Source of the DNA: an uncultured virus (IMG/VR IMGVR_UViG_3300025085_003231)
Lineage: Duplodnaviria; Heunggongvirae; Uroviricota; Caudoviricetes
IMG/VR virus record: IMGVR_UViG_3300025085_003231
Length of the DNA stretch: 63,156 bases
Direction: 5' to 3' (one strand)
Shown: positions 4,306-28,939 of the stretch, one piece after another
Layout of the letters: each line of letters opens with the position of its first letter
How positions within the stretch are numbered: position 1 is the first letter of the stretch
The notes under the pieces: model-generated
Told to the model about the DNA's origin: nothing
Seen by the model: only the letters and a program-made list of their open reading frames with translations
Databases searched by the model: none
Translations under genes and position numbers: made by a program

Positions 4306-4485
4306 TTATCCTATTTGAATGTTCTGTTTAACTGAATGCACTTGCCGCCTTAAATATATGGCTTTAGCAATTTCCTTAGCATCCGTATTGAGTTTGCCTG
4401 AAATGTAAAATGAGTAGCCTTGGGACTGACGAATTTCAATAATGTGCCTGAAATCATAGACCCATGAGGGAATATCAACGCTCAT
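4306..4485 (-). CDS. Small hypothetical protein
   Basis: MSVDIPSW..., overlaps stop of upstream gene. Confidence 0.55.
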   Translation of the reverse strand: MSVDIPSWVYDFRHIIEIRQSQGYSFYISGKLNTDAKEIAKAIYLRRQVHSVKQNIQIG

Positions 4486-4849
4486 ACAATATCCACCCAC
4501 CTGCTAAGTTTTGATTTTTAGCAGAAAATAGTCTACCTGTGCGATACCCGTTTTTAGAACGGACTGAATCGGAGATGAGTCGTCCCCGACATTCCAATCC
4601 CCATGGTGGGGCAGAAAACTCCGTTCTTATCCGAAAAGTTTCGGATTCAGTAAAATCAACGGGAGTGACTTGCATAGTTCCTGTGGAGGCATCCCATTTT
4701 AATTCTGCAATAACCAAATGCAATCCTGTGCCTGATGATGAAATACGATACCAGACTCGTAGTGGATAACGAGCCGCTAATTCATTGATGGCGGTTTCAA
4801 CTATTGGGTCGGTAATGGAAACATCATCCCAATCAAATGTCAGCCACAT
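4475..4849 (-). CDS. Minimal AEP (primase-polymerase)-like protein
   Basis: hhDhD motif (LTFDWD) and SSSGTGLH motif like AEP motifs I/II. Confidence 0.5.
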   Translation of the reverse strand: MWLTFDWDDVSITDPIVETAINELAARYPLRVWYRISSSGTGLHLVIAELKWDASTGTMQVTPVDFTESETFRIRTEFSAPPWGLECRGRLISDSVRSKNGYRTGRLFSAKNQNLAGGWILYER

Positions 4850-4891
4850 AGAAAATCTATGCTGCTACTTTCTATTTAAGCATTCACAATC

Positions 4892-5500
4892 TCAAAAAGA
4901 TTGTTGTGAACTTGATGATGGGTCAGTAAGACAAAACCCTGACATATCTGGCTTGTAAGAAAATGGGGTGTAGTTGGGGTCAGTTTCAGCCTCATTGGTT
5001 TCAGTGGTTTCAAAAACCCACTCATAATCGGCGGAAATTGGATTCGGAGGTGTGGTAGCGTCTTGAGCCACAGTTTCATAGTCGGTAATCCAAGTGTCGT
5101 GGTCCAGCGTATCATCACTACGATACTTTTGTTGTGTGGCCGCAGGTTGGCTTCGTAGACATCGTCCATCCTGTGCTTGACGGGAAGAACCTTCAACGGC
5201 CTTGCACATCAATTCACTAATGACAATATCTTGAGATTCGTCGGAAACATCAACTGCTTCACCGTCGGCATCATAAACATAGACACCACCAACCAAAACA
5301 GCATTGTTAGTAGGTGCTTCAGTGGTAGAAAGTGCTACACAGGAATTTTCATCATCTGGGTCAGCATAATATCCTTCCATACAGGTGCATTCTCCATCAA
5401 CACGCTCCATGTTGGAGTCTGGGCAATGGATTTTGGTATAGTAGTATCCCATTCCGAGTCCAATGACTCCGATGGTGGCTATCAATGGTGTAGCGTTCAT
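4892..5500 (-). CDS. N-terminally anchored Cys-rich (EGF-like) protein
   Basis: N-terminal TM; CPDSNMERVDGECTCMEGYY..C. Confidence 0.7.
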   Translation of the reverse strand: MNATPLIATIGVIGLGMGYYYTKIHCPDSNMERVDGECTCMEGYYADPDDENSCVALSTTEAPTNNAVLVGGVYVYDADGEAVDVSDESQDIVISELMCKAVEGSSRQAQDGRCLRSQPAATQQKYRSDDTLDHDTWITDYETVAQDATTPPNPISADYEWVFETTETNEAETDPNYTPFSYKPDMSGFCLTDPSSSSQQSF

Positions 5501-5508
5501 ACTATTAT

Positions 5509-5652
5509 CTAATCGTTTTCGCTATTTAAGTTTTGCGAAACAAACCTGGTAATAACTGGATTACGGATGGCAATAAACCACCAAACAAAATAGAGGCTTG
5601 CTAAGGATAATGAGGTCAGCCAAGCCAAAATAAACCAAATAATCAGTTCCAA
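5509..5652 (-). CDS. Small membrane protein (47 aa)
   Basis: Hand-translated MELIIWFILAWLTSLSLASLYFVWWFIAIR; TTG start after GGAGTG, overlapping ArsA stop. Confidence 0.55.
   Translation of the reverse strand: MELIIWFILAWLTSLSLASLYFVWWFIAIRNPVITRFVSQNLNSEND
5521..5529 (-). promoter_or_regulatory. TATA box, TAGC class (representative)
   Basis: TTAAATAGC 20 nt before ATG; same class at 6851, 10186, 10706, 16951, 19929, 23832, 25796, 35512, 49059. Confidence 0.85.
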
Positions 5653-6830
5653 CTTAGTTTCACTCCTGCGGAGACTTTACGACGAGTGGGTTTTCCTGCT
5701 TCGGCGGGAAGTGGGACTTGATAATGTGGTGAACTGCCTCCCATGTTAAAGTCCTCCCAACGATACAAAGACTCTTGCTCATTGATTTTCCACTTGGCTG
5801 AGTCCAAAAATGGCACAGAGACGGTGACTGACTTGTCGCCAATTATCAATGATTTTTTGGGAGCAAAGGAGATTCCTTTAGCATTCCACAGAATTTTAGC
5901 ATAATCAATCAACTTGGCACCACGAGGTTCATACGGCAAACGAGATACGCCTACTAATCGGATATTGTGAGTGCCACAGATTTCTTGATATTTGACCAGA
6001 TATGGTTGCTGGATGTCGTATTCACACTTGATTAACTGGGTTGCTGGATTGGGATTATCTCCTTCAGCGGCTTCCCAAGTGCTGGGTCCGAAATTAGGGA
6101 TGATATTATTTACCACTATGTTGTGAACCTTGATTTTCTGAGACTCCAAGAATCGGATAGTTCGGTAACACTCTTGAAGTCCTGCCTCCGAAGCAATAGA
6201 TACCAAATTAACACTGACCCACTCGCTACGAAGTAAGGCTTTGAGACGGTCTATTTTATCACAAACCTCTTCCAATAAATTGGCTAATTTTTCTGCGGTT
6301 TTGTCACGGCGGAACAAAACGCCTTTGAAATTCTCAATCTTGGCTTTCATACGCAAAATCTTGAGCAAAAAGGTTTTGATATAATCTGGGGCTGTTAAAG
6401 CACGAAGCGTGTGTCCTGTGGGTGCGGTATCAAATACCACTACATCATAGTCACAAGATTGGGTTAATCGCAGAATCTCTTCTAAAGCAAAGTATTCGTC
6501 CATTCCTGGAAATCCTGCCATGTCAGAAAACAGTTCGGAATCCAAACCTGGCAACATTTTGGAGAATGTCTCAGCAGTGGCTTGATTCAAGGTATCTGTA
6601 AAATTAAGAGCCATGCGTTCTGCATCTATGTTTTTAGCCCAAAAATTGGGTCCGATTTGAACTTCAGTCGGACCGACGGCCACGCCTAATGTGTCATCAG
6701 TGCTATGGGCTGGGTCAGAAGATACCAGAATTGTTCGGTAGCCTTGAGAGGCTAAATGTTGGGCTGATGCAGCGGAAACGGTGGATTTGCCGACACCGCC
6801 CTTGCCTGTATATAGTAACAGTTGAGCCAT
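5643..6830 (-). CDS. ArsA/Get3(TRC40)-family ATPase, single domain, with C-terminal extension
   Basis: GKGGVGKST, SSDPAHS, PGMDE and DTAPTGH motifs. Confidence 0.92.
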   Translation of the reverse strand: MAQLLLYTGKGGVGKSTVSAASAQHLASQGYRTILVSSDPAHSTDDTLGVAVGPTEVQIGPNFWAKNIDAERMALNFTDTLNQATAETFSKMLPGLDSELFSDMAGFPGMDEYFALEEILRLTQSCDYDVVVFDTAPTGHTLRALTAPDYIKTFLLKILRMKAKIENFKGVLFRRDKTAEKLANLLEEVCDKIDRLKALLRSEWVSVNLVSIASEAGLQECYRTIRFLESQKIKVHNIVVNNIIPNFGPSTWEAAEGDNPNPATQLIKCEYDIQQPYLVKYQEICGTHNIRLVGVSRLPYEPRGAKLIDYAKILWNAKGISFAPKKSLIIGDKSVTVSVPFLDSAKWKINEQESLYRWEDFNMGGSSPHYQVPLPAEAGKPTRRKVSAGVKLSWN

Positions 6831-6865
6831 ACTTTGGCTTTATCATTGTTGCTATTTGAATCTTC

Positions 6866-7279
6866 TTAAGCCCATTTCATAACGAAATCATCTGACAAAA
6901 CCTTGGTATCGTCAGCAATAATCCAGTTTTCAATAAAGTCTCCTCGGATAATAACTGTGTAAAAAGTCCCGTAAATTACTGAGGCTAATTCTGCTGGGTA
7001 AAAACTGGCGGACAATGAAAACAACAAAACTCGGTCATCTTCATAGGCACTATCCTCAATTTTTATATTGATGCCTTCGCCAATATATGGCCCTGAGTAG
7101 ATAACTTCCGAATCCATACAGACAAAGATGTGAAAATAGTCTGCATATTGGGTTTCTTCAGGGGCAATCAAAATTTCTGTGAGTTGGACTCCCGCAGGTA
7201 TTTTTGCAGAGGTCATAACCAACAGGTCTTCGGTTGAACTAACGGTCATGCGGCGTTCGTATTCTGACATGGTTCTCAT
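6866..7279 (-). CDS. Beta-rich hypothetical protein (possibly structural)
   Basis: ORF; start 7279 chosen from promoter spacing. Confidence 0.65.
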   Translation of the reverse strand: MRTMSEYERRMTVSSTEDLLVMTSAKIPAGVQLTEILIAPEETQYADYFHIFVCMDSEVIYSGPYIGEGINIKIEDSAYEDDRVLLFSLSASFYPAELASVIYGTFYTVIIRGDFIENWIIADDTKVLSDDFVMKWA

Positions 7280-7324
7280 GTATAATTTCATTTATTTACT
7301 ATTTAAGTTTTTAGCCTTCCTGCA

Positions 7325-10165
7325 TCACGATTTGTCGGATTCTTCTGTTTCTGGGTCTTCATTTTCCTTTTTTCGGCGTTCTAATGGTGTTTCTTTTCTG
7401 GGAACTGAACTACCATACAAAGTTTCATCTTCTAACCATTGAGCATCCGAAGCAATTTGTCGTTTCAGTTGAGAATCTTGGTCGGGGAATGCACTCATGT
7501 TTTTCAGATTCCTCTCTATGAAGTCATCTTCTATGAAATCATGATTAGAAACCACAAATTCTCCGTCCAGAATTTCCTCTAATCCGTTAGCAATAGCAGA
7601 TTGTTGCTTACGACGACGGCGTAATCTTCCTTGTCGCTCTTTGTCAATCAACATTTTACGATATTCGGCTTGTTGAGCATCAATCCAGGCTTCAACTTCT
7701 TCATTACTCATGTTCAAAACATCGCCATTAAGGATTTTTCGCTTATACCATTCCACATTTTCTACGGTTACACGAAGTCCCAATTCTTGGATAACCACGG
7801 CAACCAACGAATCAATGTTATCGTATAACAGATAATCAATCCAGACTCGTGCCGTTCTTCCTGTGGAACCTTGAAGTTCAAAAGATTGGAATCCTCTCAC
7901 AGTTGCTATCGTGCCAAGAGGTGTTTCCCAAGGCAGGTCAAGAGATTGAATGGCTCTTTGGCCTAATTGAGTGGTGTCTACGGCTCCACCAAAGAAGCAT
8001 AGTCCATCTAAAAACGGAGTCATGTTACGAGGCGTGTAAAAGGCAGATTTAGTGTTGGAATCAACACCAGGAAACTGGTCGGTCTGGTCAAGATAAGCAA
8101 TTTGGGTGGCTGGTTGTCGGTCAAAAGCAGAATTGCAACTCATTACTGTGCCTCCTGTGGAGTCTGCATAAGTAAAAACCCACTGGTCACGGTCAGCATC
8201 CCATCCTCCCGAAACAGGAATTCGGGTCGTAGAATTGCGGTTCACTTCAATATCGGCATTCATGGTGGCTCCAAAATTGAAAATATCAGGTCCTGCTGCT
8301 GTATCTACCACCCATTTATTTGCGATAACATTTCCCGACATTTGCACAGTGCCGAAATCATACATAATGACTTGCGGGCCATTTGCTGAACGATACCCTA
8401 AAAATCCATAAGCGATGTTAGCGGGCTCTCCTGTGAAGGCGGGTTCATTAGAGGCACCATACTGAATAACATTGGGAGTTTGAAGGCCGCAATAATAACT
8501 TATTGGCTCGGGAGATTGTCCTTGTAATGTCGGGTCAGAACTAAGACGACGCTCCAAATTTTTATCTGGTATGGCTCGCAAAATCTTGATACCAACATCT
8601 CCTTCTTCCTGTTGAAATTCAATTTCTATTAAATCTTTAGCAATTGCTTCCTGTTCCTGCGTAAATGTTTTTTGTTGAATTGCTTTGGCATACCATTTAT
8701 CAGGCAGAGTGATACCTGCTGCTGTTTCTATGCCACCACCCTTGACTCCAAAAGGCCAAATACCCAATCCCTGAGTCGGAGGTGTCACGAAAACTGTGGT
8801 AAGTGAATCAAAAACATAGAAAAAGTTGGCAGCGTAAATTTCTCCATTAGTTGAGGCACCGTGCGTAACACGGTCTACGGCAAGCAATACTTGGAGCGTA
8901 GCAGGGTCTTGGGTTCCATCTTGTTCAGAAAAACTGGGTGTGATAGCAGTGCCATAAGCACCGTTAAGATTATAGGCAGGAACTGATGCGTCTATCATCC
9001 AGTTCAGATTCCCCAGTGCAAAAGTCATTACACCGTTAGCAAAAGGCCCGCTTTCTCGTAAGTAATCCCAGCCTGAGAAAAATGGTGTGGTGATGCTGAC
9101 TGAACCTGCACCATCTCCATAGGCTACTTCTCCTGTAAAAACACCGAAATTGATGGTGGCATCATAAGGAATTGGGGCAACATTGAGGCAAGAAACATCA
9201 TGAACTCGGGTAGGGTAATATCCATTATTGAGTGTGGTGATGTCCACTTGGGTGAAGGTAACAGTGGAAGTATTTGATGACTTGCAAATACTGGATATAT
9301 CCAGTTTTCTTGCTGGGGCGCATAATTGAGACGGTAATCCTGTTCCGATATTGGTGGAACCATTGATGGAAACGGTAGAGGATTCATTACGAATAAACTG
9401 AATATCGTATGCTTTGAAGGTGTTCGTGGGGAGTGTTTCTGAATATTCAATTTCGGGAGAGACAATCTCAAATATGAGGGTGCTGAACCACGCTGAATAA
9501 TCTTGTCCTGTTAGTCCACCCTCTACTGCGGTGTTAATGCGACTATGACCTCCGACAACTAAATTAAATTGCTGGATACCTTCATTGACTCTTTTAGCAC
9601 TATCTAAGCCATAAACTCCTGGTGTGGAATCGCTGGAAATCCCTGTGAGTCCTGGGTCGCACTCATAAGGCATACGACATAGGTAAGTCCAATATTCATT
9701 CCGCCTGTTAAATGGTTGGTCAATAATAAATCCGTTGCTATCATAACCAGGATTCAACCAATACTTGTCAGAAAATATGGGCGGTTCCCCTCCTGGGTTT
9801 TGTTCTTGAAAATAGTGGGCATCCACAAATCCTAAGTTGTGTGCTCTGATTATGGTAATAAAACCATCCCACGCCCATGCTCCTGCTCCTCCGTTCAAAT
9901 CACTGAAAAATGCCCGATAACTACCGACCACAATATAATGGTCTTGACAATAAGTGGTGTTACGAATAATGATGTCAAATTCAGAAAAATCTGCATCACT
10001 AAATTGAGGGATGACGATGTCTCCCGCAGGTTTAGTAGAACTCTGACCTTGTCGGTTGCTGTCTGCTGCGAATTTCCATAGTTGTCTATCTCCATCGCTC
10101 AATATGTATCCCCAATCAGTGAGGCTCTTTAGGGCTTCTACATTTAGATTGTATGCTAACCCCAT
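7325..10165 (-). CDS. Large beta-rich protein (possible virion spike/surface protein)
   Basis: 946 aa, G/T/S/aromatic-rich body, charged helical C-terminus; function inferred. Confidence 0.75.
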   Translation of the reverse strand: MGLAYNLNVEALKSLTDWGYILSDGDRQLWKFAADSNRQGQSSTKPAGDIVIPQFSDADFSEFDIIIRNTTYCQDHYIVVGSYRAFFSDLNGGAGAWAWDGFITIIRAHNLGFVDAHYFQEQNPGGEPPIFSDKYWLNPGYDSNGFIIDQPFNRRNEYWTYLCRMPYECDPGLTGISSDSTPGVYGLDSAKRVNEGIQQFNLVVGGHSRINTAVEGGLTGQDYSAWFSTLIFEIVSPEIEYSETLPTNTFKAYDIQFIRNESSTVSINGSTNIGTGLPSQLCAPARKLDISSICKSSNTSTVTFTQVDITTLNNGYYPTRVHDVSCLNVAPIPYDATINFGVFTGEVAYGDGAGSVSITTPFFSGWDYLRESGPFANGVMTFALGNLNWMIDASVPAYNLNGAYGTAITPSFSEQDGTQDPATLQVLLAVDRVTHGASTNGEIYAANFFYVFDSLTTVFVTPPTQGLGIWPFGVKGGGIETAAGITLPDKWYAKAIQQKTFTQEQEAIAKDLIEIEFQQEEGDVGIKILRAIPDKNLERRLSSDPTLQGQSPEPISYYCGLQTPNVIQYGASNEPAFTGEPANIAYGFLGYRSANGPQVIMYDFGTVQMSGNVIANKWVVDTAAGPDIFNFGATMNADIEVNRNSTTRIPVSGGWDADRDQWVFTYADSTGGTVMSCNSAFDRQPATQIAYLDQTDQFPGVDSNTKSAFYTPRNMTPFLDGLCFFGGAVDTTQLGQRAIQSLDLPWETPLGTIATVRGFQSFELQGSTGRTARVWIDYLLYDNIDSLVAVVIQELGLRVTVENVEWYKRKILNGDVLNMSNEEVEAWIDAQQAEYRKMLIDKERQGRLRRRRKQQSAIANGLEEILDGEFVVSNHDFIEDDFIERNLKNMSAFPDQDSQLKRQIASDAQWLEDETLYGSSVPRKETPLERRKKENEDPETEESDKS

Positions 10166-10202
10166 ACCTTATTTTAGGGTATGCTGCTATTTCAATCTTC
10201 GC

Positions 10203-10685
10203 TTAACTGGTGGCTGTCCATGATATTCTCGCACCTGTGGGAAAATTCTCAATTGGCTCTACCAAAGCATTAGCGATAAAATAGGTAATATCCCAATCAG
10301 TTCCTGGTGGAATTTCTATTTGCCAACCTGTGGGGTCCATCGGTTGGTCGCTCAAACTGATGGAATAAGGTGCCGCAGTTCCTGACAATCCGACGGCGGG
10401 GCGGCCATCTGGGTCCAAAAAATATGATGTGGTTCCAACAACAAAATTGACATAACCTCCTGGGACCCAATCGTTTCCAAGCCCCCATAATCCTGGAGTG
10501 GAGCCAAAGTATTGTAACACTACAAATTCATTGGTTTTGGTGCGGAGACGGTTCTTGATAGTAGCCGTTCCGATTTTAGAATAAAAAACTGATTGTGGGG
10601 TTTTCTCTAATAAATCTAATTGTTTAGGAGGGATGTTTCCTAAATCTGCGACTTCCCACTGAAACCCTTGTCTGCGGATAGCCAT
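10203..10685 (-). CDS. Beta-rich protein, possible single jelly-roll structural protein
   Basis: 160 aa with alternating strand pattern (YVNFVV, IEIPPG, WDITY); fold is inference. Confidence 0.6.
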   Translation of the reverse strand: MAIRRQGFQWEVADLGNIPPKQLDLLEKTPQSVFYSKIGTATIKNRLRTKTNEFVVLQYFGSTPGLWGLGNDWVPGGYVNFVVGTTSYFLDPDGRPAVGLSGTAAPYSISLSDQPMDPTGWQIEIPPGTDWDITYFIANALVEPIENFPTGARISWTATS

Positions 10686-10732
10686 GGTAATTATTGTGTT
10701 GGCTTGCTATTTCAATCTTAGGGACTCATCCC

Positions 10733-10867
10733 TCAATCTGATTTATAGACTTTGACGACAGCATAAGAGATGGTCAAAGCAATTCCTAACTTAACTATCA
10801 TAGGAAGTTTATTGATGCTAAGGCTATCTGCCTTTTTGACAACATTATTTCCACATCCGCAACCCAT
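10733..10867 (-). CDS. Small tail-anchored membrane protein
   Basis: MGCGCGNNVVKKADS followed by C-terminal TM. Confidence 0.65.
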   Translation of the reverse strand: MGCGCGNNVVKKADSLSINKLPMIVKLGIALTISYAVVKVYKSD

Positions 10868-10868
10868 G

Positions 10869-11168
10869 TTAATTTCTCCTGAATTTTCGCCATAGTTTCT
10901 GACGGAACTGAGTTGGTTCTCCACAGACTTGATGATGCTGACTTTGTTTCTTCTTTTCTATTTTTTGAGCAGCAGCCAGTTCTTGGGAGTCCTTTTCGCT
11001 GAGGTGTTTCACCCATTCGGGTGTTTTGGATTCCGTGGGGATTATTGAAGGTAATTCGGACGGAATCTGAAATTCGGGCAAATGGGAACTACGGAAACGA
11101 AGCAATCCTGCAAGCCTTTTTTCTTCGGCTTTCATCAATTGTTCTAAAGTTGGCTTCATTTTTTCCAC
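10869..11168 (-). CDS. Hypothetical protein
   Basis: 99-aa ORF in operon. Confidence 0.6.
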   Translation of the reverse strand: MEKMKPTLEQLMKAEEKRLAGLLRFRSSHLPEFQIPSELPSIIPTESKTPEWVKHLSEKDSQELAAAQKIEKKKQSQHHQVCGEPTQFRQKLWRKFRRN

Positions 11169-11581
11169 CTAATTGATGCAAACAAAGATTTGGGACTAAT
11201 GCCGACTTCACGAAGAATTTCAGCATCTGCTTCTCCTGAGAATACATCAACAATCTCTTTAGCACCCTTGACTTCAACGGGGCATTGATAACTGGAACCC
11301 CAACGAGCAAATTGAATAGTTGATTTGAATCCAAAATCACTAAATAATCCGCCCCATGCTCGGCTACGAGAGTTGGAAGCAGAATAACGAATGTAAAATT
11401 GCAAAATCTTTATCATCTTGGCTTCAAATGATGTCATCTCTGGCAATCCTTCGCCTTCAGACGAAAATGTTTCTGTGTCCATCATGCGTGTTATCAATTC
11501 ATCAGTGAGTGCTTCATACTGAACCACTAATGCGATAAGGTCATCACGACTCATTTCTGAATATTCGCTCATAAGGGTCAC
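11156..11581 (-). CDS. Hypothetical protein
   Basis: 141-aa ORF, SD GGAGTG. Confidence 0.7.
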   Translation of the reverse strand: MTLMSEYSEMSRDDLIALVVQYEALTDELITRMMDTETFSSEGEGLPEMTSFEAKMIKILQFYIRYSASNSRSRAWGGLFSDFGFKSTIQFARWGSSYQCPVEVKGAKEIVDVFSGEADAEILREVGISPKSLFASIRWKK

Positions 11582-11584
11582 TCC

Positions 11585-12073
11585 TTACCAAGTGGAGGGC
11601 AATAGTTCCGTAGCATTTAGTTGTTTTGCACGGAGTTTAATGAATTTCTTAGCCTTAGCCTTGTTTGATTTCTTAGCAAGTCCCCAAGTTTTAATTGCAT
11701 TCTTCAAGTCAGACTTGTTGCGGATTGGGAAACTACCGTCTTTCAATGCGTGTCCCTTCTTTGCCAAACGCTCTCGTTGGTTTTGAGTAAATTCTGCGGC
11801 TGCTACTTCGGTTGTCTCTCCAACTTCTGCAATAACCTTGGTGACATCTTCCTTAATTGCTGATGTGGCTTTCTCAGTATCTTTTGAGCCCTTCATTTGA
11901 AATGCTTTGACTCCTCCATAAACCATCAATATACCTACGGTGGTCATACCAATGGTGTTCCAGTAAGAAACTGTGCGGAAGGTTTTGACGGAACGAACCA
12001 ACAAAAGTCCACCAGCAGAAATTCCAATAACTCCTGCCACGATGTAGGTATTCACTTTAAATTCTTCAGCCAT
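11585..12073 (-). CDS. Two-TM protein with C-terminal basic domain (DUF6582-like)
   Basis: Two N-terminal TMs; after AAAE comes DGSFPIRNKSDLKNAI, a module I recall from phage head-associated proteins. Confidence 0.7.
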   Translation of the reverse strand: MAEEFKVNTYIVAGVIGISAGGLLLVRSVKTFRTVSYWNTIGMTTVGILMVYGGVKAFQMKGSKDTEKATSAIKEDVTKVIAEVGETTEVAAAEFTQNQRERLAKKGHALKDGSFPIRNKSDLKNAIKTWGLAKKSNKAKAKKFIKLRAKQLNATELLPSTW

Positions 12074-12111
12074 ACACTTAAATTAGTGTCGCTGTTATTT
12101 AAGTTTTAACA

Positions 12112-12357
12112 TCAATAAGTGTTAATCCCTGCTTGACGGAGATACAAAAATGCCATAGCACCACCAGCAATCACACCTGCGGGGCCTAAAATCTTGCCCA
12201 CTGTGCTGGATTCTCCTCGCAAAATGTAGGGGATTGAGTGTGCTGTTTCTGCCACACCTGTAAGCATCATGCCCAATGCAAGGGTATATCCAATCAAATG
12301 GATGGGTTTTTTCTCAGTTTCGTAGTATATTTTGGGATAGTTCTTCATATTTTTCAC
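12112..12357 (-). CDS. Small two-TM membrane protein
   Basis: Two hydrophobic segments. Confidence 0.7.
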   Translation of the reverse strand: MKNMKNYPKIYYETEKKPIHLIGYTLALGMMLTGVAETAHSIPYILRGESSTVGKILGPAGVIAGGAMAFLYLRQAGINTY

Positions 12358-12358
12358 C

Positions 12359-13615
12359 TTATTTTCTCATAAACCATGCCGCTCCGCCTGTGAAAACGGC
12401 CAATCCAAAGAAAGGCCACCACAAATTTGTGGTTACGGGTTCATCAGCAACGGTGGTGGTATGGGAGTAGGTAGTGACGGTAGTGGAACTTCCACCTGAA
12501 TCAGTGCTGGGGGTTGAAGCATCGTCGTCAATTTCAGGCTGGACATCAATAATATTATCTGGGGCTACTGTGGGTCCAGTTACTGAGACAATGGAAAACT
12601 CATTTGAATATGGGCCTTCAGTCTGCATAAGCGGTCCGACATACGGGGCGGAATTGGTTGCTGACCAAGCCACACCATCAGTGGTTCCAGAAATTGTGAA
12701 TCCTTGTCGGGGAGTTATTTTGAATCGTGCTGCTTCTCCTGAATAATTAGAACTCAGGAAAAATGGATTTTGTCCTTGAAGATTGAATTTTTCTGTGCGA
12801 ACTCCTCGTTCATTAAAGAATCCTGTGCCACACTTGACCAGATAATCTTCATTACCTCTTAATATAACATTGAATGTAGGTGTGTTGAAAGACTTTGGCA
12901 ACAAATAATCTGTGGTAATGTCTACTACGCAAGAACCATCATCAAAATTAGCCGAAGCATTGTAATTATCTGCGGAAGAACAGGTGCATCCCTCACGAAC
13001 TGGAATACAAGAGCCATCATCGGTGTTAGCACGACCATCAAAATTCAAAGCCGTCGCATCGGTGCATCCTTTGTAGACACAATTTCCTGCGGAATTAGCA
13101 TTTTTATCATAATTGTCTGCCTCTGAATCCATACATCCAACAATATTTACGGTAGCCGAAGTAATTTTTAAGAAATGATACTGACCTGGTGCTACGGTAA
13201 ATGTAGTAGAGCCTGACCAAGACTGAGAAGAAATTGCATCTCCTTCTTTGAGAGCATTCATGCTAACGCCCCATCCTGAAACAGAGGAAATATTATCTTT
13301 GAAGGCGACTGTGACTTGAACTGCTTTGGTTTCTTTGTTGCGGATTACAACAGTTGATTTGTGTCCATCATAAAATACTCCATATCCGAAACTACCACTT
13401 CCTGATTTAACTTCGGGCTCCCAAGATTCTGAGGCTCCTGCCCAAGTTGCAGTAACTTGTAAATAATCTGCTATATCCGCAGGTAGGTCTTCTGAGTGGT
13501 CGGTCCGATAACTATTTTTCCAAACAGTTGGTGGTGCAGAAGTAGCCCTCAATACTACTGACTCCGCATTGTAAATGCCTGTCCAATAATTATCTACTGC
13601 GGTAATTCCCAACAT
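12359..13615 (-). CDS. Tail-anchored Cys-rich surface protein with GCxDxxAxNY..DDGSC repeats
   Basis: Three degenerate GC(M/T)..A.N(Y/F)..A...G.C repeats, S/T linker, C-terminal TM + MRK, no signal peptide. Confidence 0.85.
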   Translation of the reverse strand: MLGITAVDNYWTGIYNAESVVLRATSAPPTVWKNSYRTDHSEDLPADIADYLQVTATWAGASESWEPEVKSGSGSFGYGVFYDGHKSTVVIRNKETKAVQVTVAFKDNISSVSGWGVSMNALKEGDAISSQSWSGSTTFTVAPGQYHFLKITSATVNIVGCMDSEADNYDKNANSAGNCVYKGCTDATALNFDGRANTDDGSCIPVREGCTCSSADNYNASANFDDGSCVVDITTDYLLPKSFNTPTFNVILRGNEDYLVKCGTGFFNERGVRTEKFNLQGQNPFFLSSNYSGEAARFKITPRQGFTISGTTDGVAWSATNSAPYVGPLMQTEGPYSNEFSIVSVTGPTVAPDNIIDVQPEIDDDASTPSTDSGGSSTTVTTYSHTTTVADEPVTTNLWWPFFGLAVFTGGAAWFMRK

Positions 13616-13616
13616 A

Positions 13617-14060
13617 TTATTGCCCCTGATTGTAATATTGTAGTGATAAGATTAGAATCATACCGATAGTTGCTACACCCAAAATTTTCTGAGTTGGTAT
13701 TTCATTGGCTGGCTTGATACTTGAACTTTGCGATGAAATGTTGTTGGATTTAACTTGAGTAACACAAGCGCAATCCTGAGATTTACAATCATAACCGCCG
13801 CCAACGAACACCGAGTCGGCATCTGAACAACTAACATGGGTTTCGGGACAAATCAAACTCTTTTGTCGGTTAAACTCGGCTTCATCTAATCCTCGGTCGG
13901 TCCACAGTTTCTTAAAATCCGAATAACTGGCACTGGAAAATTTCTGACCCGATTCATCATCATACATTCGGGACACAATAAATTCATGGTAAGTCAAACT
14001 GCAATCTACTAAGGCTTGAAGTCTGCCTGAAGTGTAAGTGTGGTCTAAATCAAACTTCAT
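13617..14060 (-). CDS. Tail-anchored Cys-containing protein
   Basis: C-terminal TM ILGVATIGMILILSL. Confidence 0.75.
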   Translation of the reverse strand: MKFDLDHTYTSGRLQALVDCSLTYHEFIVSRMYDDESGQKFSSASYSDFKKLWTDRGLDEAEFNRQKSLICPETHVSCSDADSVFVGGGYDCKSQDCACVTQVKSNNISSQSSSIKPANEIPTQKILGVATIGMILILSLQYYNQGQ

Positions 14061-14488
14061 TTTATCACCTGCGGAGGTCTTTTACTGTAATTGATGAGGA
14101 AGTGGTAGTAATCCTGGTTCTCCCAATAATTTAACCATATTTTGTGTAGGGTGGGTGTCAGAGGAAGGTATGTCCAATAAACATTATCATCAACAGAGTA
14201 TTTTTCAGCGTTAGGGCCTCCTCTGTTTGAACAATACGGCCATATATCATTGGTTTGTAACCAAGCACTCGCTTGTTCTGTAAGCCATAGTTCCTCTCCA
14301 TCAGTGATGGGTAATGAAATATCTCCCAAATCCGCCGTCCTCTGGACATGGAAGAAAAATGGTAATTCTTGTCGGTAGACTTCTTCATAGACTTCTTCCT
14401 GAATATATCCTCCCACACCAGGGAGTTTGATTTGGTAATTTGGAGGGAACTTTTTCATCCACTCAGGCAATAAATCGTAATTATTCAT
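14057..14488 (-). CDS. Hypothetical protein with C-terminal LINY..PPQVIK tag
   Basis: Coupled ORF. Confidence 0.75.
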   Translation of the reverse strand: MNNYDLLPEWMKKFPPNYQIKLPGVGGYIQEEVYEEVYRQELPFFFHVQRTADLGDISLPITDGEELWLTEQASAWLQTNDIWPYCSNRGGPNAEKYSVDDNVYWTYLPLTPTLHKIWLNYWENQDYYHFLINYSKRPPQVIK

Positions 14489-14778
14489 TGTATCACCTGT
14501 GGAAGTTTTTGATTATAATTGATGATAAAATTAGATAGTGATTTAAGTTGAGTATATTGGGACATATTTTCTCCAACCATTTCTTCATTACCTGCATTGT
14601 TAATTAGCCAATTCCTGAAATCTTGTTTAGAATTGAAATAGAGAAGGGTGTTTCTTTCATCATCCCTGTATATTGGGAGTCCATCGTTTTTAATATCAAA
14701 TAAATCCTCTTTCTCCCTATCAGGGTGCGACCATAAAAGGTCAAACTTTCTTTCTAATTCTTCAGAGGTCAAAATCAA
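14485..14778 (-). CDS. Hypothetical protein with C-terminal IINY..LPQVIQ tag
   Basis: Coupled ORF. Confidence 0.7.
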   Translation of the reverse strand: MILTSEELERKFDLLWSHPDREKEDLFDIKNDGLPIYRDDERNTLLYFNSKQDFRNWLINNAGNEEMVGENMSQYTQLKSLSNFIINYNQKLPQVIQ

Positions 14779-15917
14779 GCCTCCTGATTCTTGGCCGAGA
14801 TAACGGTAGAAACTACGATTCCTACCGCAGTTAAGCCCACAATTCCTGCTACTAAACCTGTTGCGGTAAAAGATTTTTCGGGGGTGGGGTCTGGGGAGGG
14901 GGTTGTTTTTGCTTGCTTATCCTTGACACACTTGCCAAAAGTTCCAAGTATTCCTCGTTTATACCCTGCTTTGCACACACATTTTCCTGCTGTGGCATCA
15001 TATTCTGAATGTGTATCGCTATCGTGACAATATTCACAAGGATTGTCTGGGTCTTCGGCAACTGCTCCTTCCACATAATTTTGTGCCGTGGAATCCATAC
15101 ATCCGAATTTTTGGAATCCTGTGGCTGTGGTGATGCGGTATTTTTTCCATGATGTGGGCATCAGCGATGGTTTTACAATGTATTCTTGAGTGGTGAGTCC
15201 TGTGGCTCGGTATCCTGCTTTCGCTATCCGAACCTTGTTGTCCGATTTATCTGGTTGCGGAATATCTGACTTTCCTGCTTTTTCTTCCCACTCCCACTTG
15301 TGTAGGATTTTAGCATACGGTGGATTGGTATCGTATTCATTGGTGGGTTGTCCTTGGTAAGTCCATTGTTCTACAATATATCCGCCTTCAGTATATGTGG
15401 GTGCATAGATACAGGAACAATCACCGTCAGTTTCTGCGACTGGTTGAAGAATTGGTGTTTCGCTCCAACTCTTATTGAATTCCCAAACTGGGTTGCTGGT
15501 TTTGCAAGGACATCCTGAACTCGGGGCTGCTGAAGAATAATTGATAGCACTGGAATCTCCGCAACCGTCTTCTACTCGGAAGGCATTCATCTTTTCTATG
15601 TAATCTGCTCGGGCGGAATTGGCCTCAGATGTGGTGCTATATTCTCCAATTTTACGGGCTGTATTAGAATCTATGGGGTTTCTACCGTCAGTGGTGGAAC
15701 TCACTCGGTATTTGATGGCTTGGGTATCAATCGTGGTAATTTTCATCACATAGATTGTTTCATCGTGAACTGAATTGCAAGCCAATGATAAATTATCTAT
15801 AACATCATATTTGATATTGCCACTGGTGAATGTTTCCACTCGCTTTTCTATTGTTTCGGCATTGCGAGCCGTCTGAGCAAAATTCATTTCATAAGGGTTA
15901 GACAATATAGTTCCCAT
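14775..15917 (-). CDS. Tail-anchored Cys-rich surface protein
   Basis: GCMDSTAQNY, EGF-like CVCKAGY, PT linker, C-terminal TM; N-terminal RNAE. Confidence 0.85.
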   Translation of the reverse strand: MGTILSNPYEMNFAQTARNAETIEKRVETFTSGNIKYDVIDNLSLACNSVHDETIYVMKITTIDTQAIKYRVSSTTDGRNPIDSNTARKIGEYSTTSEANSARADYIEKMNAFRVEDGCGDSSAINYSSAAPSSGCPCKTSNPVWEFNKSWSETPILQPVAETDGDCSCIYAPTYTEGGYIVEQWTYQGQPTNEYDTNPPYAKILHKWEWEEKAGKSDIPQPDKSDNKVRIAKAGYRATGLTTQEYIVKPSLMPTSWKKYRITTATGFQKFGCMDSTAQNYVEGAVAEDPDNPCEYCHDSDTHSEYDATAGKCVCKAGYKRGILGTFGKCVKDKQAKTTPSPDPTPEKSFTATGLVAGIVGLTAVGIVVSTVISAKNQEA

Positions 15918-16930
15918 TAAATTTTCCCTCCATAGATTGTGGCTCCTGCGGTAATCAGGACTATTGCTAATCCTGCGGCAACGAATCCTCCTGAGTCAGT
16001 AGTGGGTGTGGATTCATTATCATCGTCAGTGGTATTCTGGCAGTGGGTGTTGTCCCAATAGTGTGCGTCAGCATTGTATTTAGAATTAGATTCATCGGTG
16101 CATGATGCGGTGAATGTTGGCGATTTTAACCACCACATTAGTTTTCCTGTGCCTCCTGTTTGTTGATGATATTTAGTGGCTTCTGTGATAGCCCATGAAA
16201 AATACTTAACAAAAATTTCTGTTCCGACATATCCTTGTGAGATACATTCTGATTCTGAAAACTGAGACTCATTAGCATCCACATAAAATATGCAAGGCAT
16301 GGAAACTTTCCATTCTTGGCTGTCGGGTTCAATAACCGCTACGCCTTTTTTCAAAGCATCCGAAGATGATGATACATCTAATCCATTGGGTAGATTGGTG
16401 AGGTGTCCTCCAGAATCAACCCTCCATCCTGCGGGCAATGTGTGTGGTTGGTGTCCTTGATAGATAGTCAAATCATACAATTTGTCAGAATTATCTATGG
16501 ATTGATAAGATTCTTCCCAAGTTTCTTTGCAAAACAACTTAGCATCCCGATATTCTTTTGGTTGGTCGTTGTAAAACAACTCTCCTGCGTAGGATTGAGA
16601 ATTGGCTCCTGCACAAGTTCCTGTGGTGATAGTGATGTTATCTGGATGTTCCCACCATTGGTCGTGGGTGTTTGATTGTCGTTGGAAGATAACGGGTCGC
16701 TCAGATTCGGCGGCAAATGGGTTCTGATTAGGGCCAGCAATTTTAACCAAAGTTTGAGGTGGTATGCCGTTGCTAAATTTAGTCTTTGCTTGAACTGAAC
16801 CATCTGGATTTTGGGTGAGAACATATCCGTCTGCCCAAGCAGCCAAAGATTTAGTCTCTCCTGAATCTCGTGATTGCCACATATTTTGTGGCGGTAATGG
16901 AACTCTGTTAAAAGCCGAGCCAAACCACAT
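15917..16930 (-). CDS. Tail-anchored Cys-containing surface protein
   Basis: CTDESNSKYNADA motif, C-terminal TM; NPFAAE near N-terminus. Confidence 0.85.
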   Translation of the reverse strand: MWFGSAFNRVPLPPQNMWQSRDSGETKSLAAWADGYVLTQNPDGSVQAKTKFSNGIPPQTLVKIAGPNQNPFAAESERPVIFQRQSNTHDQWWEHPDNITITTGTCAGANSQSYAGELFYNDQPKEYRDAKLFCKETWEESYQSIDNSDKLYDLTIYQGHQPHTLPAGWRVDSGGHLTNLPNGLDVSSSSDALKKGVAVIEPDSQEWKVSMPCIFYVDANESQFSESECISQGYVGTEIFVKYFSWAITEATKYHQQTGGTGKLMWWLKSPTFTASCTDESNSKYNADAHYWDNTHCQNTTDDDNESTPTTDSGGFVAAGLAIVLITAGATIYGGKI

Positions 16931-16978
16931 GGCGTTTTATTGTGGCTCTCGCTATTTAAGTTTGGCGTTGTTGATAAA

Positions 16979-17416: not shown

Positions 17417-19117
17417 TCAGACTTCTAAGGCATCAAGAATGCCGTCGTTGTCATCATCGTCGTCCAGATTATCTGCGACACCATCGTTGTCATGGTCAAA
17501 CTGACCTGTTTCATCGTTGCCGTCATTCTGTTCAAACCAATCGGAAAGTCCGTCGTTGTCGTCGTCCAAATCCGAAGCATCCCAAATACCATCGTTGTCA
17601 TGGTCGTAGCGATAAGCGGAGAATGCACCACCGATTTCATCAACATCAAGAATGTCGTCGTTATCGTCGTCAATATCTACTGCATCGTTAAGTCCATCAT
17701 TGTCGTGGTCACGAGAAGCATCAGAACCGTTGTCGTAAAGGTCTTTGTAGTTGTCAATTCCGTCGTTATCAATGTCCAAGTCATACCAGTCGGGGATGTT
17801 GTCGTTGTCGTGGTCGTAAATGTCGGTATTGTCATTACCGTCATTGACTTCTTCGTTGTCGTTTAGACCGTCGCCATCGTCATCATCGTCTTCTGAATCA
17901 ACAATTCCGTCGTTGTCGTGGTCCATTGGGGAATCATCCATAGAATCTGGGATTCCATCATTGTCGTCATCATTATCCAAATCATTAGGGATTCCGTCAC
18001 CATCATTGTCGTTTTCGCCATTTTGGTTTTGGTTATCTAATTGTTGCCCTTGTTGTTGTTCATTCTGTTGTCCTTGCTGACCTTGTTGGCCGTTTTGGGT
18101 TTGACCTTGCTGTTGTTGGTTAGCACCATTTTGGTTTTGGCCGTTCTGTTCTTCGGCTTGTTGTTCAGATTGCTGACCGCCTTGCTGACCGCCTTGTTGT
18201 TGTTGGCCTTGGCCGTTGTCTTGTTGCTGGCCTTGTTGTCCAGATTGACCTTGGTTTCCTTGCTGACCTTGTTGGCCCTGCTGACCTTGCTGTCCCTGTT
18301 GTCCCTGTTGGCCTTGCTGTCCTTGCTGGCCTTGTTGTCCTTGTTGGCCCTGTCCTTGACCTTGACCTTGGGATTGTCCTTGGCCTTGACCTTGACCTTG
18401 TCCTTGGCCTTGCCCTTGTCCTTGACCTTGACCCTGACCTTGACCCTGACCTTGGCCTTGACCTTGGCCTTGACCTTGGCCTTGTCCTTGACCTTGGCCT
18501 TGACCTTGGCCTTGTCCCTGCCCTTGTCCCTGTCCTTGTCCTTGGCCTTGGCCTTGTCCTTGACCTTGACCTTGACCCTGACCTTGACCTTCTCCTTGTC
18601 CTTGGTCTTCGGATTCTCCTCCGCCCTCGGTTCCACCATCTCCAGAACCTGGGTTAGATTCTTGGAAATCTGGGTCGTAGGCATCGGGAATTCCATCTCC
18701 GTCGGAGTCGGAATACTCGCCATCGTTAGGGTCTGTTGGGTATTGGTCTACATTGTCGGCCTTGCCGTCACCATCGGTGTCGGAGTTATTGGGATTTGTT
18801 CCCTTGGCATATTCTTGGGCATTGGAAAGTCCATCGCCATCAGGGTCTGCATTGGCATCTCCACCGTTGGTGGGGTTGAGGCCATTGGAAACTTCCCACC
18901 CATCGGGTAGTCCGTCGCCGTCTGAATCAGCGTTGTTCATATTAGTGCCGTGTGTTTGTTCTTCGGAATTGGTAAGTCCATCTCCGTCCCAGTCGGCTCC
19001 ACCGTCAGATGGGTCCAATGGGTCAGAACCGTCAGCGGCTCCAACACCTGCGCTCAAAACGAGCATCAGGGTAGTCAGTAGTGCAAGCATCGTATTTTTG
19101 AATTTGTTATTTTTCAT
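17417..19117 (-). CDS. Secreted Ca-binding (DxDxDG, thrombospondin-3-like) protein with poly-GQ linker
   Basis: Signal peptide, DSDGDG repeats, (GQ)n/(GQQ)n tract, DHDND repeats. Confidence 0.9.
   Translation of the reverse strand: MKNNKFKNTMLALLTTLMLVLSAGVGAADGSDPLDPSDGGADWDGDGLTNSEEQTHGTNMNNADSDGDGLPDGWEVSNGLNPTNGGDANADPDGDGLSNAQEYAKGTNPNNSDTDGDGKADNVDQYPTDPNDGEYSDSDGDGIPDAYDPDFQESNPGSGDGGTEGGGESEDQGQGEGQGQGQGQGQGQGQGQGQGQGQGQGQGQGQGQGQGQGQGQGQGQGQGQGQGQGQGQGQGQGQGQGQGQGQGQSQGQGQGQGQQGQQGQQGQQGQQGQQGQQGQQGQQGQQGNQGQSGQQGQQQDNGQGQQQQGGQQGGQQSEQQAEEQNGQNQNGANQQQQGQTQNGQQGQQGQQNEQQQGQQLDNQNQNGENDNDGDGIPNDLDNDDDNDGIPDSMDDSPMDHDNDGIVDSEDDDDDGDGLNDNEEVNDGNDNTDIYDHDNDNIPDWYDLDIDNDGIDNYKDLYDNGSDASRDHDNDGLNDAVDIDDDNDDILDVDEIGGAFSAYRYDHDNDGIWDASDLDDDNDGLSDWFEQNDGNDETGQFDHDNDGVADNLDDDDDNDGILDALEV
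18230..18604 (-). repeat. Coding hexamer/nonamer tandem repeat (GQ, then GQQ)
   Basis: ccttga/ccttgg/ccttgt/ccctga units on + strand with synonymous variation. Confidence 0.95.
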
Positions 19118-25291: not shown

Positions 25292-25624
25292 TTACATCAC
25301 CGTTGTTATTCCCAATGCGGCTCCCAAAAATCCTGGCAAAAACATCATTACAATTTGCCACCAACGACTACGGAATCTTTCAATTTCTTCATCGGTGTTT
25401 TTGACATTTTGTTCTAAAAGGGCTAATCGTGTCAAGATGGGTGGCTGACCGTTACCATCAATAACAACTTTGGTAAGTCTTTTTAAGTCGGCCTTATGTG
25501 ACATTGATTCTGATGCCAAGCGGTCCAAATGAATTTCAGTGGAACGAGAGGTATCAACAAGTGCTTGTAAAAGTGTTTCCAAATGCTGGGCTACTTCTAC
25601 CACGGCTCTTTCATCCTCGGACAA
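25292..25624 (-). CDS. Coiled-coil protein with C-terminal TM (XhlA/holin-like architecture)
   Basis: GNGQPPILTRLALLEQ coil and terminal TM. Confidence 0.7.
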   Translation of the reverse strand: MSEDERAVVEVAQHLETLLQALVDTSRSTEIHLDRLASESMSHKADLKRLTKVVIDGNGQPPILTRLALLEQNVKNTDEEIERFRSRWWQIVMMFLPGFLGAALGITTVM

Positions 25625-28917: not shown

Positions 28918-28939
28918 GAGTTTATAGTTGTGTTGTGAC

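Follow-up and report, generated by a model that had tools for sequence, protein, structure and literature searches.

Proteins held in a membrane by a single C-terminal transmembrane (TM) helix, the tail-anchored proteins, are the clients of Get3-type ATPases, and Get3-type insertion keeps their N-terminal domain at the cytoplasmic face. Several relatives of this family have been described: eukaryotic Get3, archaeal single-domain Get3, the Get3d proteins, which bind tail-anchored proteins in vitro (PMC10248533, in the part of the article available), and ArsA, the tandem-domain ATPase of arsenic pumps. Here we analyzed a stretch of 63,156 nucleotides (nt) of DNA from an uncultured virus (IMG/VR record IMGVR_UViG_3300025085_003231), referred to below as the window, in which an initial annotation had noticed an ArsA-family ATPase gene beside a cluster of putative tail-anchored proteins. 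We find that this virus-like element encodes its own strongly diverged Get3-type ATPase, which forms a virus-associated clade within archaeal Get3. The ATPase, a small membrane protein encoded next to it and the many tail-anchor-like proteins of the same genome together suggest a virus-run membrane-delivery route. Viruses are known to bring chaperonins; a virus-encoded factor for post-translational delivery of membrane proteins was not found in the literature searched. Among the titles listed from this literature, which leaves out most subscription journals, none described a virus-encoded Get3, in line with the initial annotation, which knew of no viral example. As far as searched, the kind of protein is known and its setting is new: a virus-like element, a dedicated small membrane partner and a large pool of potential clients.

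The ATPase is of Get3 type

The initial annotation had called the 395-amino acid (aa) product a single-domain ArsA-family ATPase, closer to Get3 than to the arsenic pump, and profiles, solved structures, fold, segment length and trees all bear this out. The protein has one P-loop and one ATPase domain. It scored 180.1 bits against TIGR00345 (GET3_arsA_TRC40, cutoff 135) and matched PF02374 (ArsA_ATPase) over aa 4-246 with an E-value of 1.4e-57 (195.7 bits, cutoff 24.3), and it stayed below the cutoffs of TIGR04291 (ArsA proper, 91.5 vs 650 bits) and NF050088 (NosAFP, 78 vs 325 bits). The deviant Walker A (GKGGVGKS), switch I (SSDPAHS) and switch II (DTAPTGHT) motifs are intact, and all three are invariant across 59 homologues. 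The best sequence relatives among solved structures were Chlamydomonas ARSA1, Methanothermobacter thermautotrophicus TRC40 (E 4e-36) and Methanocaldococcus jannaschii Get3 (E 3e-32), with per-domain scores of 127.9 bits for 3zq6 and 115 bits for 3ug6 compared with 73 bits for the better half of Leptospirillum ferriphilum ArsA.

An AlphaFold2 model built from 59 homologues (pLDDT 85.9) gave the same picture. Foldseek placed the archaeal Get3 3zq6 first (E 9e-22), followed by 3ug6. VIA-align Z scores were 26.0 for 3zq6 (rmsd 3.4 over 276 residues), 24.1 for M. jannaschii Get3, 24-25 for eukaryotic Get3 and 21-22 for ArsA (1f48, 9nbl), with all alignments spanning model residues 1-318. The segment between switch II and the next strand, read together with the Cys positions from a 125-row alignment, is 63 aa long in the viral clade and 68 aa (median) in 56 cellular single-domain homologues; the ArsA halves are shorter here, with 49 aa (24 N-halves) and 37 aa (24 C-halves). 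The extended helical subdomain with the TRC40-type insert is kept in the viral ATPase, and the hydrophobic fraction of this helical segment is 0.46 (0.41 in cellular single-domain proteins), but its Met count of 2.0 is below their 3.7, a mixed picture for an exposed, Met-rich groove. On sequence and model, we read the protein as a Get3-type ATPase with an intact catalytic site.

An auxiliary metabolic gene for arsenic or antimony resistance, encoding an ArsA pump ATPase, is what the family name would imply, as would homologue annotations such as 'arsenite-transporting ATPase' and one phage record with an annotated arsenite pump ATPase. We consider this very improbable. The protein has a single ATPase domain and falls far short of the ArsA profile cutoff. 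An HMMER alignment to 9nbl and a separate alignment to the 24 + 24 ArsA halves revealed no Cys in the viral ATPase at the metalloid-binding positions, which we take to be Cys113, Cys172 and Cys422 of Escherichia coli ArsA. The lack of an ars operon, already remarked upon in the initial annotation, was confirmed by Pfam: no ArsB, Acr3, ArsC, ArsD or ArsR was found among the 84 window minus-strand open reading frames (ORFs, at least 60 aa) scanned, nor among 97 scanned ORFs of G003, a complete 160-kb relative. The viral ATPase also groups apart from the tandem ArsA halves (support 99), as described next.

The viral ATPases form a clade within archaeal Get3

A protein search returned 6,180 matches at E <= 1e-5 among 8,000 scored candidates. 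The best 120 of these 6,180 matches were 47-97% identical, approximately 380-430 aa long and of marine source, and proteins of the ~390-aa form came exclusively from marine metagenomes and IMG/VR contigs. The viral Get3 family is abundant in marine metagenomes, and DNA of the window itself is present in sequencing runs of 14 studies. The best cellular matches (185,579 prokaryotic species, one genome each), with Poseidoniales among them, reached 35-39% identity over aa 1-247 only, and GenBank phages gave only partial matches by tblastn (29-36% identical). Querying viral contigs with the single protein gave no match; the alignment-based query found five loci, on IMG/VR contigs of 84-166 kb, that carry full-length relatives at 52-57% identity.

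Two trees were built, one of 125 rows under LG+G4 and one of 70 rows under a mixture model, from which the five longest single-domain rows and most ArsA halves were omitted. PDB comparisons stand in for named eukaryotic Get3 and E. coli ArsA, which neither tree contains. In the first tree the viral clade is monophyletic (support 100) on a long stem of 0.9 changes per site and lies inside the single-domain, mostly archaeal set, with the tandem ArsA halves split off (support 99). The phylogenetic comparison against Get3 and ArsA that had been proposed with the initial annotation places the viral proteins within single-domain archaeal Get3. In the second tree the viral clade (support 100) and the Poseidoniales clade (support 97) lie together on the same side of a branch whose SH-aLRT of 85 neither establishes their grouping nor dismisses it.

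Cellular Get3 proteins of Poseidoniales are 387-437 aa long. One exceeded the Pfam cutoff for PF17886 (ArsA_HSP20), and E <= 0.01 was reached in 3 of 5 scanned. Directly after the Poseidoniales Get3 gene we observed an SRP54-like ORF in 6 of 7 loci read (for example L008:6001-8571 and L029:6001-8685), full-length with 454-456 aa in five and Pfam-confirmed in two, so that these cellular loci pair two protein-targeting factors side by side. Within the viral family we also noted a subfamily of ~316 aa that has no C-terminal beta domain (L101, L103, L106-L108, L110 and L113).

A conserved small membrane protein follows the ATPase gene

The gene order common to loci L001-L005 runs from a 946-aa protein through a ~140-aa protein to the ATPase and a variable slot, after which come homologues of window ORFs 4475, 3861, 3278, 2401, 1900, 756 and 338. 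The tail-anchored cluster, which the initial annotation had noted beside the ATPase, turned out to be a variable insertion. The conserved partner had been overlooked: it is a small membrane protein whose ORF (5509-5652) overlaps the ATPase stop by 10 nt. Counterparts of 47-60 aa are present in all five viral loci and lie directly 3' of Get3 in four of the five IMG/VR loci. The small ORF starts a few bases from the ATPase stop in L003, L004 and L005 and is found 2 kb downstream in L001. Nineteen metagenomic loci of the family were inspected, one with too little downstream DNA to judge; the small ORF was detected in 16 of the 18 assessable loci (displaced by ~570 nt in one) and not in L104 and L109. 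The protein consists of an N-terminal TM helix, a [YF]FV[WR]W..RN..T motif and a short polar tail, with F22, V23, W25, R30, N31 and T35 invariant in an alignment of five. The ~316-aa Get3 subfamily keeps this partner, with RWN replacing RN in the motif.

The ATPase is translationally coupled to the small membrane protein, and gene order and conservation make the latter a candidate membrane partner or receptor of the ATPase. Because basic residues follow the TM helix, its C-terminal ~25 residues would face the cytoplasm. No viral-type partner was seen beside the Poseidoniales cellular Get3 genes, and no homologues of Get1, Get2, Get4, Get5, Sgt2 or WRB/CAML were recognized among window ORFs by Pfam. 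Scanning viral contigs with the small-protein alignment returned a sole locus (L096), an unrelated high-GC contig without Get3 that we rejected as a chance match.

A conserved membrane partner would also suit a membrane-tethered ATPase that, in the manner of MinD or ParA, places the genome, the assembly site or an exit portal and has no tail-anchored clients. Get3 belongs to the SIMIBI/ParA-MinD-related class of P-loop proteins, and G003 encodes a HerA/FtsK-like ATPase with a C-terminal TM helix (described below), so membrane-associated DNA handling may occur in this group. However, the matches of the window ATPase to the CbiA, ParA and MinD profiles are weak and cover only ~35-50 residues around the P-loop, compared with a Get3/ArsA profile and a fold that extends over aa 1-318, and the Get3-specific helical subdomain is kept. 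A role in positioning or egress thus appears improbable.

Tail-anchor-like proteins are enriched in the window and in a complete relative

We scored an ORF as tail-anchor-like if it had a single Kyte-Doolittle (KD) segment (window 19, KD >= 1.6) that started after residue 20 and ended no more than 25 aa from the C-terminus. ORFs 10733, 14775, 15917, 25292, 36381, 57944, 59384 and 58128 pass. Seven of these had been listed in the initial annotation as having a C-terminal TM helix and no signal peptide. Two further listed ORFs fared less well: 13617 (KD 1.57) passes only when the threshold is lowered to 1.4, and 12359 fails at both 1.6 and 1.4, its last ~20 uncharged residues being Trp/Gly-rich and followed by RK. 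Counting all ORFs, 8/105 in the window are tail-anchor-like compared with 25/1138 in 80 cellular loci (Fisher p=0.005). The figure for G003 is 14/222 (p=0.002 against the same cellular set), and for the tailed haloarchaeal virus HVTV-1 it is 2/145. Among ORFs of at least 100 aa, G003 has 10/155 and the cellular loci 10/802 (p=0.0004), with 0/94 in HVTV-1; the window, with 2/67 at the strict threshold, does not differ significantly from the cellular loci in this size class. Overall, the window and its complete relative have, in proportion, about three times as many tail-anchor-like ORFs as the cellular loci. The co-occurrence of the ATPase with tail-anchored proteins that the initial annotation led one to expect is seen genome-wide for tail-anchor-like ORFs in the window and G003, but does not extend to the adjacent cluster. 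Relatives have no such cluster at this place; their counterparts of 16979 and 10203 lie almost side by side. In the window the cluster looks like one transcription unit, because a single promoter box precedes 15917 and the downstream genes overlap or abut.

The large tail-anchor-like proteins have no hydrophobic N-terminus, and other proteins of the same genome carry classical signal peptides (for example 17417-19117). Many of them have a Thr/Ser/Asp-rich linker before the TM helix and one to three basic residues at the end. In the products of 12359-13615, 14775-15917 and 15917-16930 we also observed a ~22-aa Cys-bounded repeat, roughly C-x-D-x2-A-x-N-Y-x6-9-D-x-x-C, with three copies in the first of these. 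The repeat proteins had no match in Pfam, NCBIfam, PHROGs or the atlas, nor did the 12359-13615 product taken singly in the atlas. We also considered sorting signals of the PGF-CTERM/archaeosortase type, which require an N-terminal signal peptide, and set them aside: the three large tail-anchored proteins have no such peptide and no NCBIfam match. When two copies of the ATPase were modelled together with the C-terminal 45 residues encoded by 14775, without controls, the score was 0.01 (mark 0.32), a result that speaks neither for nor against binding.

The initial annotation spoke of Cys-rich ectodomains, a term that conflicts with tail-anchor topology because the N-terminal domains stay cytoplasmic. 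The Cys-rich domains would come to lie outside the particle only if a particle membrane forms inside the cytoplasm. Disulfides and glycans would then have to be made in the cytoplasm as well. G003 encodes glycosyltransferases, and no thiol oxidase was recognized among window ORFs by Pfam.

A C-terminal beta domain and a possible chaperone role

The ATPase domain is followed by a beta domain of which the initial annotation made no mention. It is kept in the family and has pLDDT above 90 in the full model. Three viral C-termini gave no Pfam match at E <= 10, ArsA_HSP20 included, and hhalign aligned the viral and Poseidoniales C-terminal domains over 56 columns in the expected register (probability 3.5%, E 0.012). 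Modelled alone the domain is weak (pLDDT 61). A VIA-wide comparison with this weak model gave top Z scores of 3.5-3.6, every row being below 4, and the first rows held the Get3d C-termini 3igf (Z 3.5) and 8elf (Z 3.2) and many alpha-crystallin domains. The domain is possibly a degenerate alpha-crystallin/HSP20-like domain, crystallin-like in these comparisons and unproven as such.

A general holdase or assembly chaperone might have such a domain. In that case the ATPase would shield hydrophobic or aggregation-prone viral proteins during mass production, without specific membrane targeting. Besides the weak likeness to alpha-crystallin domains and to the Get3d C-terminus, the nearest cellular clade bears PF17886 (ArsA_HSP20), for which type of homologue a chaperone role has been argued (PMC6593721, in the portion available), and the ATPase gene sits among conserved, possibly structural genes. 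Magroviruses encode chaperonins (PMC5434244, accessible sections), and the role would be the same as that proposed for those chaperonins. On the other side, a membrane is indicated both by how tightly the gene is coupled to that of a conserved membrane protein and by the surplus of tail-anchor-like proteins, the ~316-aa subfamily keeps the membrane partner without having the C-terminal domain, and the crystallin likeness is statistically weak. We therefore find a purely chaperoning role doubtful.

Proposed delivery of viral tail-anchored proteins

On balance, the best explanation, which we hold with modest confidence, is that the viral Get3 acts with the small membrane protein as its docking site to deliver viral tail-anchored proteins to a membrane. 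Late in infection, a Get3 dimer would capture the C-terminal TM helices of viral tail-anchored proteins post-translationally, keep these clients soluble and pass them to the membrane. The small membrane protein would serve as the Get3 docking site, a part played by Get1/Get2 in eukaryotes, and ATP hydrolysis would power the cycle. The N-terminal domains of the clients would remain on the cytoplasmic face.

Several observations weigh against this explanation. Some concern the ATPase itself. Its insert falls 5 aa short of that in cellular single-domain homologues, its helical segment is poorer in Met (2.0 vs 3.7) and the CXXC motif of dimerization (zinc) is not found in its sequence, although CXXC is also missing from functional plant and some archaeal Get3 homologues (PMC6593721, as far as its available text goes). 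According to the same partial source, a TRC40-type insert alone does not predict tail-anchor targeting, and crystallin-bearing Get3 homologues may be general chaperones. Others concern the clients. The excess of tail-anchor-like ORFs was counted with a crude TM predictor and ORF caller against background loci that are Get3 neighborhoods and not random genome samples. The Arg or Lys residues with which many tails end after the TM helix would fit a type I topology better than a translocated tail under the positive-inside rule. The tail-anchored cluster (10733-16930) is a variable insertion, not found at that place in relatives, and the proteins encoded in the conserved slot after Get3 are anchored by their N-terminus in the window and in 3 of the 4 distinct lineages related to it. 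Finally, the host already has a Get3 of its own.

Extending the delivery model, we tentatively consider that an undescribed lineage of ~160-kb linear marine archaeal viruses encoding the family D DNA polymerase (PolD) runs a minimal orthogonal GET pathway, consisting of the diverged Get3 and a single-pass receptor of 47-60 aa. It is conceivable, though not probable, that this receptor labels a membrane specific to the virus, such as a virion membrane that is internal or formed inside the cell. Equally speculative is the last part of this extension, in which dozens of tail-anchored proteins are mounted from the cytoplasm, among them Cys-rich, probably glycosylated, receptor-binding-like proteins and the HerA/FtsK-type ATPase.

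If delivery by a viral Get3 is true, it would follow that host capacity does not suffice for a large archaeal virus to mount its many tail-anchored proteins, and a membrane would be expected in the virus particle or where particles assemble, in a group of viruses not yet seen. The ATPase would be the first virus-encoded membrane-protein targeting factor and the small protein the first candidate receptor for any archaeal-type Get3. The two genes, for an ATPase and a ~50-aa membrane protein, would offer a compact system for in vitro tests of the membrane step of archaeal Get3.

The element and its relatives

Every recognizable gene in the 63-kb window lies on the minus strand, and GC content is ~42%. 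Pfam identified an archaeal-type set of replication and repair genes (Table 1), together with matches to ERCC4, a FEN-like nuclease, UvdE, Fpg and HNH. The window is collinear with G003 and matches its first ~53 kb in reverse orientation. According to IMG/VR, G003 (160 kb) and G004 (166 kb) are linear with inverted terminal repeats and one of the five relatives is a provirus. Both PolD subunits are encoded by the complete relatives. G003 has the PolD large subunit DP2 (E 1e-104; for example L091:6624-10190, minus strand), a PolX-like protein, a ligase, a primase, three C5 methyltransferases and the glycosyltransferases mentioned above; no family B polymerase was recognized in it. Pfam and PHROGs recognized no capsid, portal, tail or envelope families in the conserved block of the window or the scanned G003 ORFs, which leaves the envelope of the initial annotation a conjecture; the label 'virus' is based on the IMG/VR classification, the terminal repeats and gene content. 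Complete relatives reach ~160 kb, and the element corresponds to the left arm of such a large, linear, virus-like genome from marine archaea, with Poseidoniales as the probable host. Among the titles listed from the literature searched we found no paper on PolD-encoding viruses of marine archaea in general or of Poseidoniales in particular, and none on magroviruses with ArsA; the available part of PMC5434244 contains no ArsA, Get3 or tail-anchor terms.

Several other genes of the element deserve mention. ORFs 756-1874 (372 aa) and 338-751 (137 aa), both on the minus strand, form an adjacent conserved pair at which the syntenic block ends. In size they would be right for a major capsid and a penton-type protein; neither matched anything in Pfam, PHROGs or the atlas look-up, and PDB sequence searches with the 372-aa and 946-aa proteins came back empty. 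For the conserved 263-aa product of 2401-3192 (minus strand), PHROGs gave a weak match to Rz-like spanins over aa 176-240 (E 1.4e-5); there is also a hint of coiled coil and, in the homologues of relatives, a mid-chain TM helix. ORF 4475-4849 (minus strand, 124 aa) is the next conserved gene past the small membrane protein in nearly all family loci and has no family match in Pfam or PHROGs. The 566-aa product of the minus-strand ORF 17417-19117 is a secreted protein that carries a classical signal peptide. It contains calcium-binding bacterial TSP3 repeats and a stretch of ~170 residues in which Gly-Gln repeats dominate, and its ends are kept at 78-89% in all five related viral loci. The variable slot downstream of the ATPase contains two tail-anchor-like proteins in L001 and L002; the window, L003 and L004 have Cys-rich proteins with an N-terminal anchor there.

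HerA/FtsK-type ATPases package DNA in membrane-containing icosahedral viruses. G003 encodes a 394-aa HerA/FtsK-like P-loop ATPase with a C-terminal TM helix (L089:4730-5914, plus strand), which matched the PHROG 'terminase large subunit' (E 5e-13) and HerA/DUF87 entries of the PDB (to E 6.5e-7). As a lead only, this product would be a candidate membrane-anchored packaging ATPase.

Table 1. Features of the ATPase locus and of the rest of the window, with coordinates in the window.
Feature	Coordinates	Strand	Basis or remark
Get3/TRC40-type ATPase, 395 aa	5643..6830	-	TIGR00345, PF02374, fold
C-terminal ~80-aa six-strand beta domain of the ATPase (aa ~316-395)	5646..5885	-	full model, family conservation
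ATPase promoter box TCAAATAG, 'TAGca' class, 21 nt before ATG	6852..6859	-
Conserved single-pass membrane protein, 47 aa, TTG start	5509..5652	-	ORF, alignment of 5
202-aa Cys-rich protein with N-terminal membrane anchor, in variable slot	4892..5500	-	hydropathy
141-aa protein, conserved upstream neighbor	6866..7291	-	synteny L001/L002; no family match
946-aa protein, conserved upstream neighbor	7325..10165	-	homologues L001-L004; no Pfam/PDB match
Further promoter boxes	10187-10194; 16952-16959	-	T[TCG]A[AT]ATAG
Small tail-anchor-like protein, 63 aa with GTG start, 44 aa with ATG start	10733..10924	-	hydropathy
Weaker tail-anchor call, 418 aa, 8 Cys, three Cys-rich repeats, Thr-rich linker	12359..13615	-
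Tail-anchor-like protein, 147 aa, 6 Cys	13617..14060	-	KD 1.57
Tail-anchor-like protein, 380 aa, 12 Cys, Ser/Thr/Pro linker before TM	14775..15917	-
Tail-anchor-like protein, 337 aa, 6 Cys, no signal peptide, first cluster gene, own 'TAGcg' box	15917..16930	-
Small tail-anchor-like protein, 70 aa; G003 homologue also tail-anchored	25292..25504	-
Class II ribonucleotide reductase	25822-27870	-	Pfam
PCNA	28198-28950	-	Pfam
Small tail-anchor-like protein, 48 aa	36381..36527	-	hydropathy
Family D DNA polymerase small subunit (DP1)	50666-51937	-	Pfam
TBP	53299-53844	-	Pfam
Two adjacent small tail-anchor-like proteins, 57 + 76 aa	57944..58358	-	hydropathy
Small tail-anchor-like protein, 73 aa	59384..59605	-	hydropathy

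Promoters and expression

Of the 48 sites listed with a T[TCG]A[AT]ATAG box, 37 have it 20-23 nt ahead of the ATG and 29 at exactly 21 nt, a spacing that would fit leaderless archaeal transcripts. Thirteen boxes at 20-23 nt spacing are followed by C, including those of the ATPase, 7325, 10203, 15917, 19219, 4892 and 11585. The ATPase shares its 'TAGca' form with 7325, 10203, 19219 and 4892, and the cluster head 15917 has 'TAGcg'. The promoter class common to ATPase and cluster, as proposed earlier, is thus confirmed, with C following both boxes. Another 21 boxes are followed by G, mostly GT ('TAGgt'), and belong mainly to replication genes at 28-63 kb. The two forms, one on the left (structural) side and the other at replication genes, may represent temporal classes. 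In 4 RNA libraries (3 studies), contigs 90-99% alike extend over much of 4400-8200, the ATPase included, and records of 151-209 nt cross the junction between ATPase and small ORF; this is weak evidence of expression, as DNA carry-over is possible and transcript ends are not visible. Parts of 8198-9463 have no cover, which carries no meaning.

Comparison with known systems

Archaeal Get3 (3zq6; 3ug6/3ug7) resembles the viral ATPase in its single ATPase domain, its fold over aa 1-318, its catalytic motifs and the length of its helical subdomain, and some archaeal homologues are likewise without CXXC (PMC6593721, partial text). Identity in the fold alignments with 3zq6 and 3ug6 is only 26-31%, however, and the viral protein differs in its extra ~80-aa C-terminal beta domain, its setting in a virus-like element, its small membrane protein and its long stem. 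The nearest cellular clade, Get3 of Poseidoniales (Marine Group II), is similar in total length and also has a beta domain after the ATPase. Here, the 35-39% identity is limited to aa 1-247, and the C-terminal domains are not demonstrably homologous. The next gene also differs, being SRP54 for Poseidoniales Get3 and the small membrane protein for viral Get3.

Among more distant relatives, Get3d (Arabidopsis At1g26090, 8elf; Nostoc All4481, 3igf/8egk) shares the arrangement of a Get3-like ATPase followed by a small beta-sandwich. Its sequence likeness to the viral protein is restricted to the first ~155 residues (E 5e-10 and 5e-9), and its active site is incomplete, according to the available sections of PMC10248533, whereas that of the viral ATPase is intact. 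ArsA (E. coli 1f48; L. ferriphilum 9nbl) has the superfamily, the core fold (Z 21-22) and the DTAPTGHT motif in common with the viral protein, but its tandem domains, metalloid Cys triad, short helical segment and ars operon have no counterpart there. With the eukaryotic GET system (Get3 with Get1/Get2 or WRB/CAML), the proposed likeness is one of organization: a cytosolic ATPase, a membrane docking partner and clients with a C-terminal TM helix. The viral candidate partner is far simpler, a single TM helix with ~25 further residues, and its pairing with the ATPase rests on gene order.

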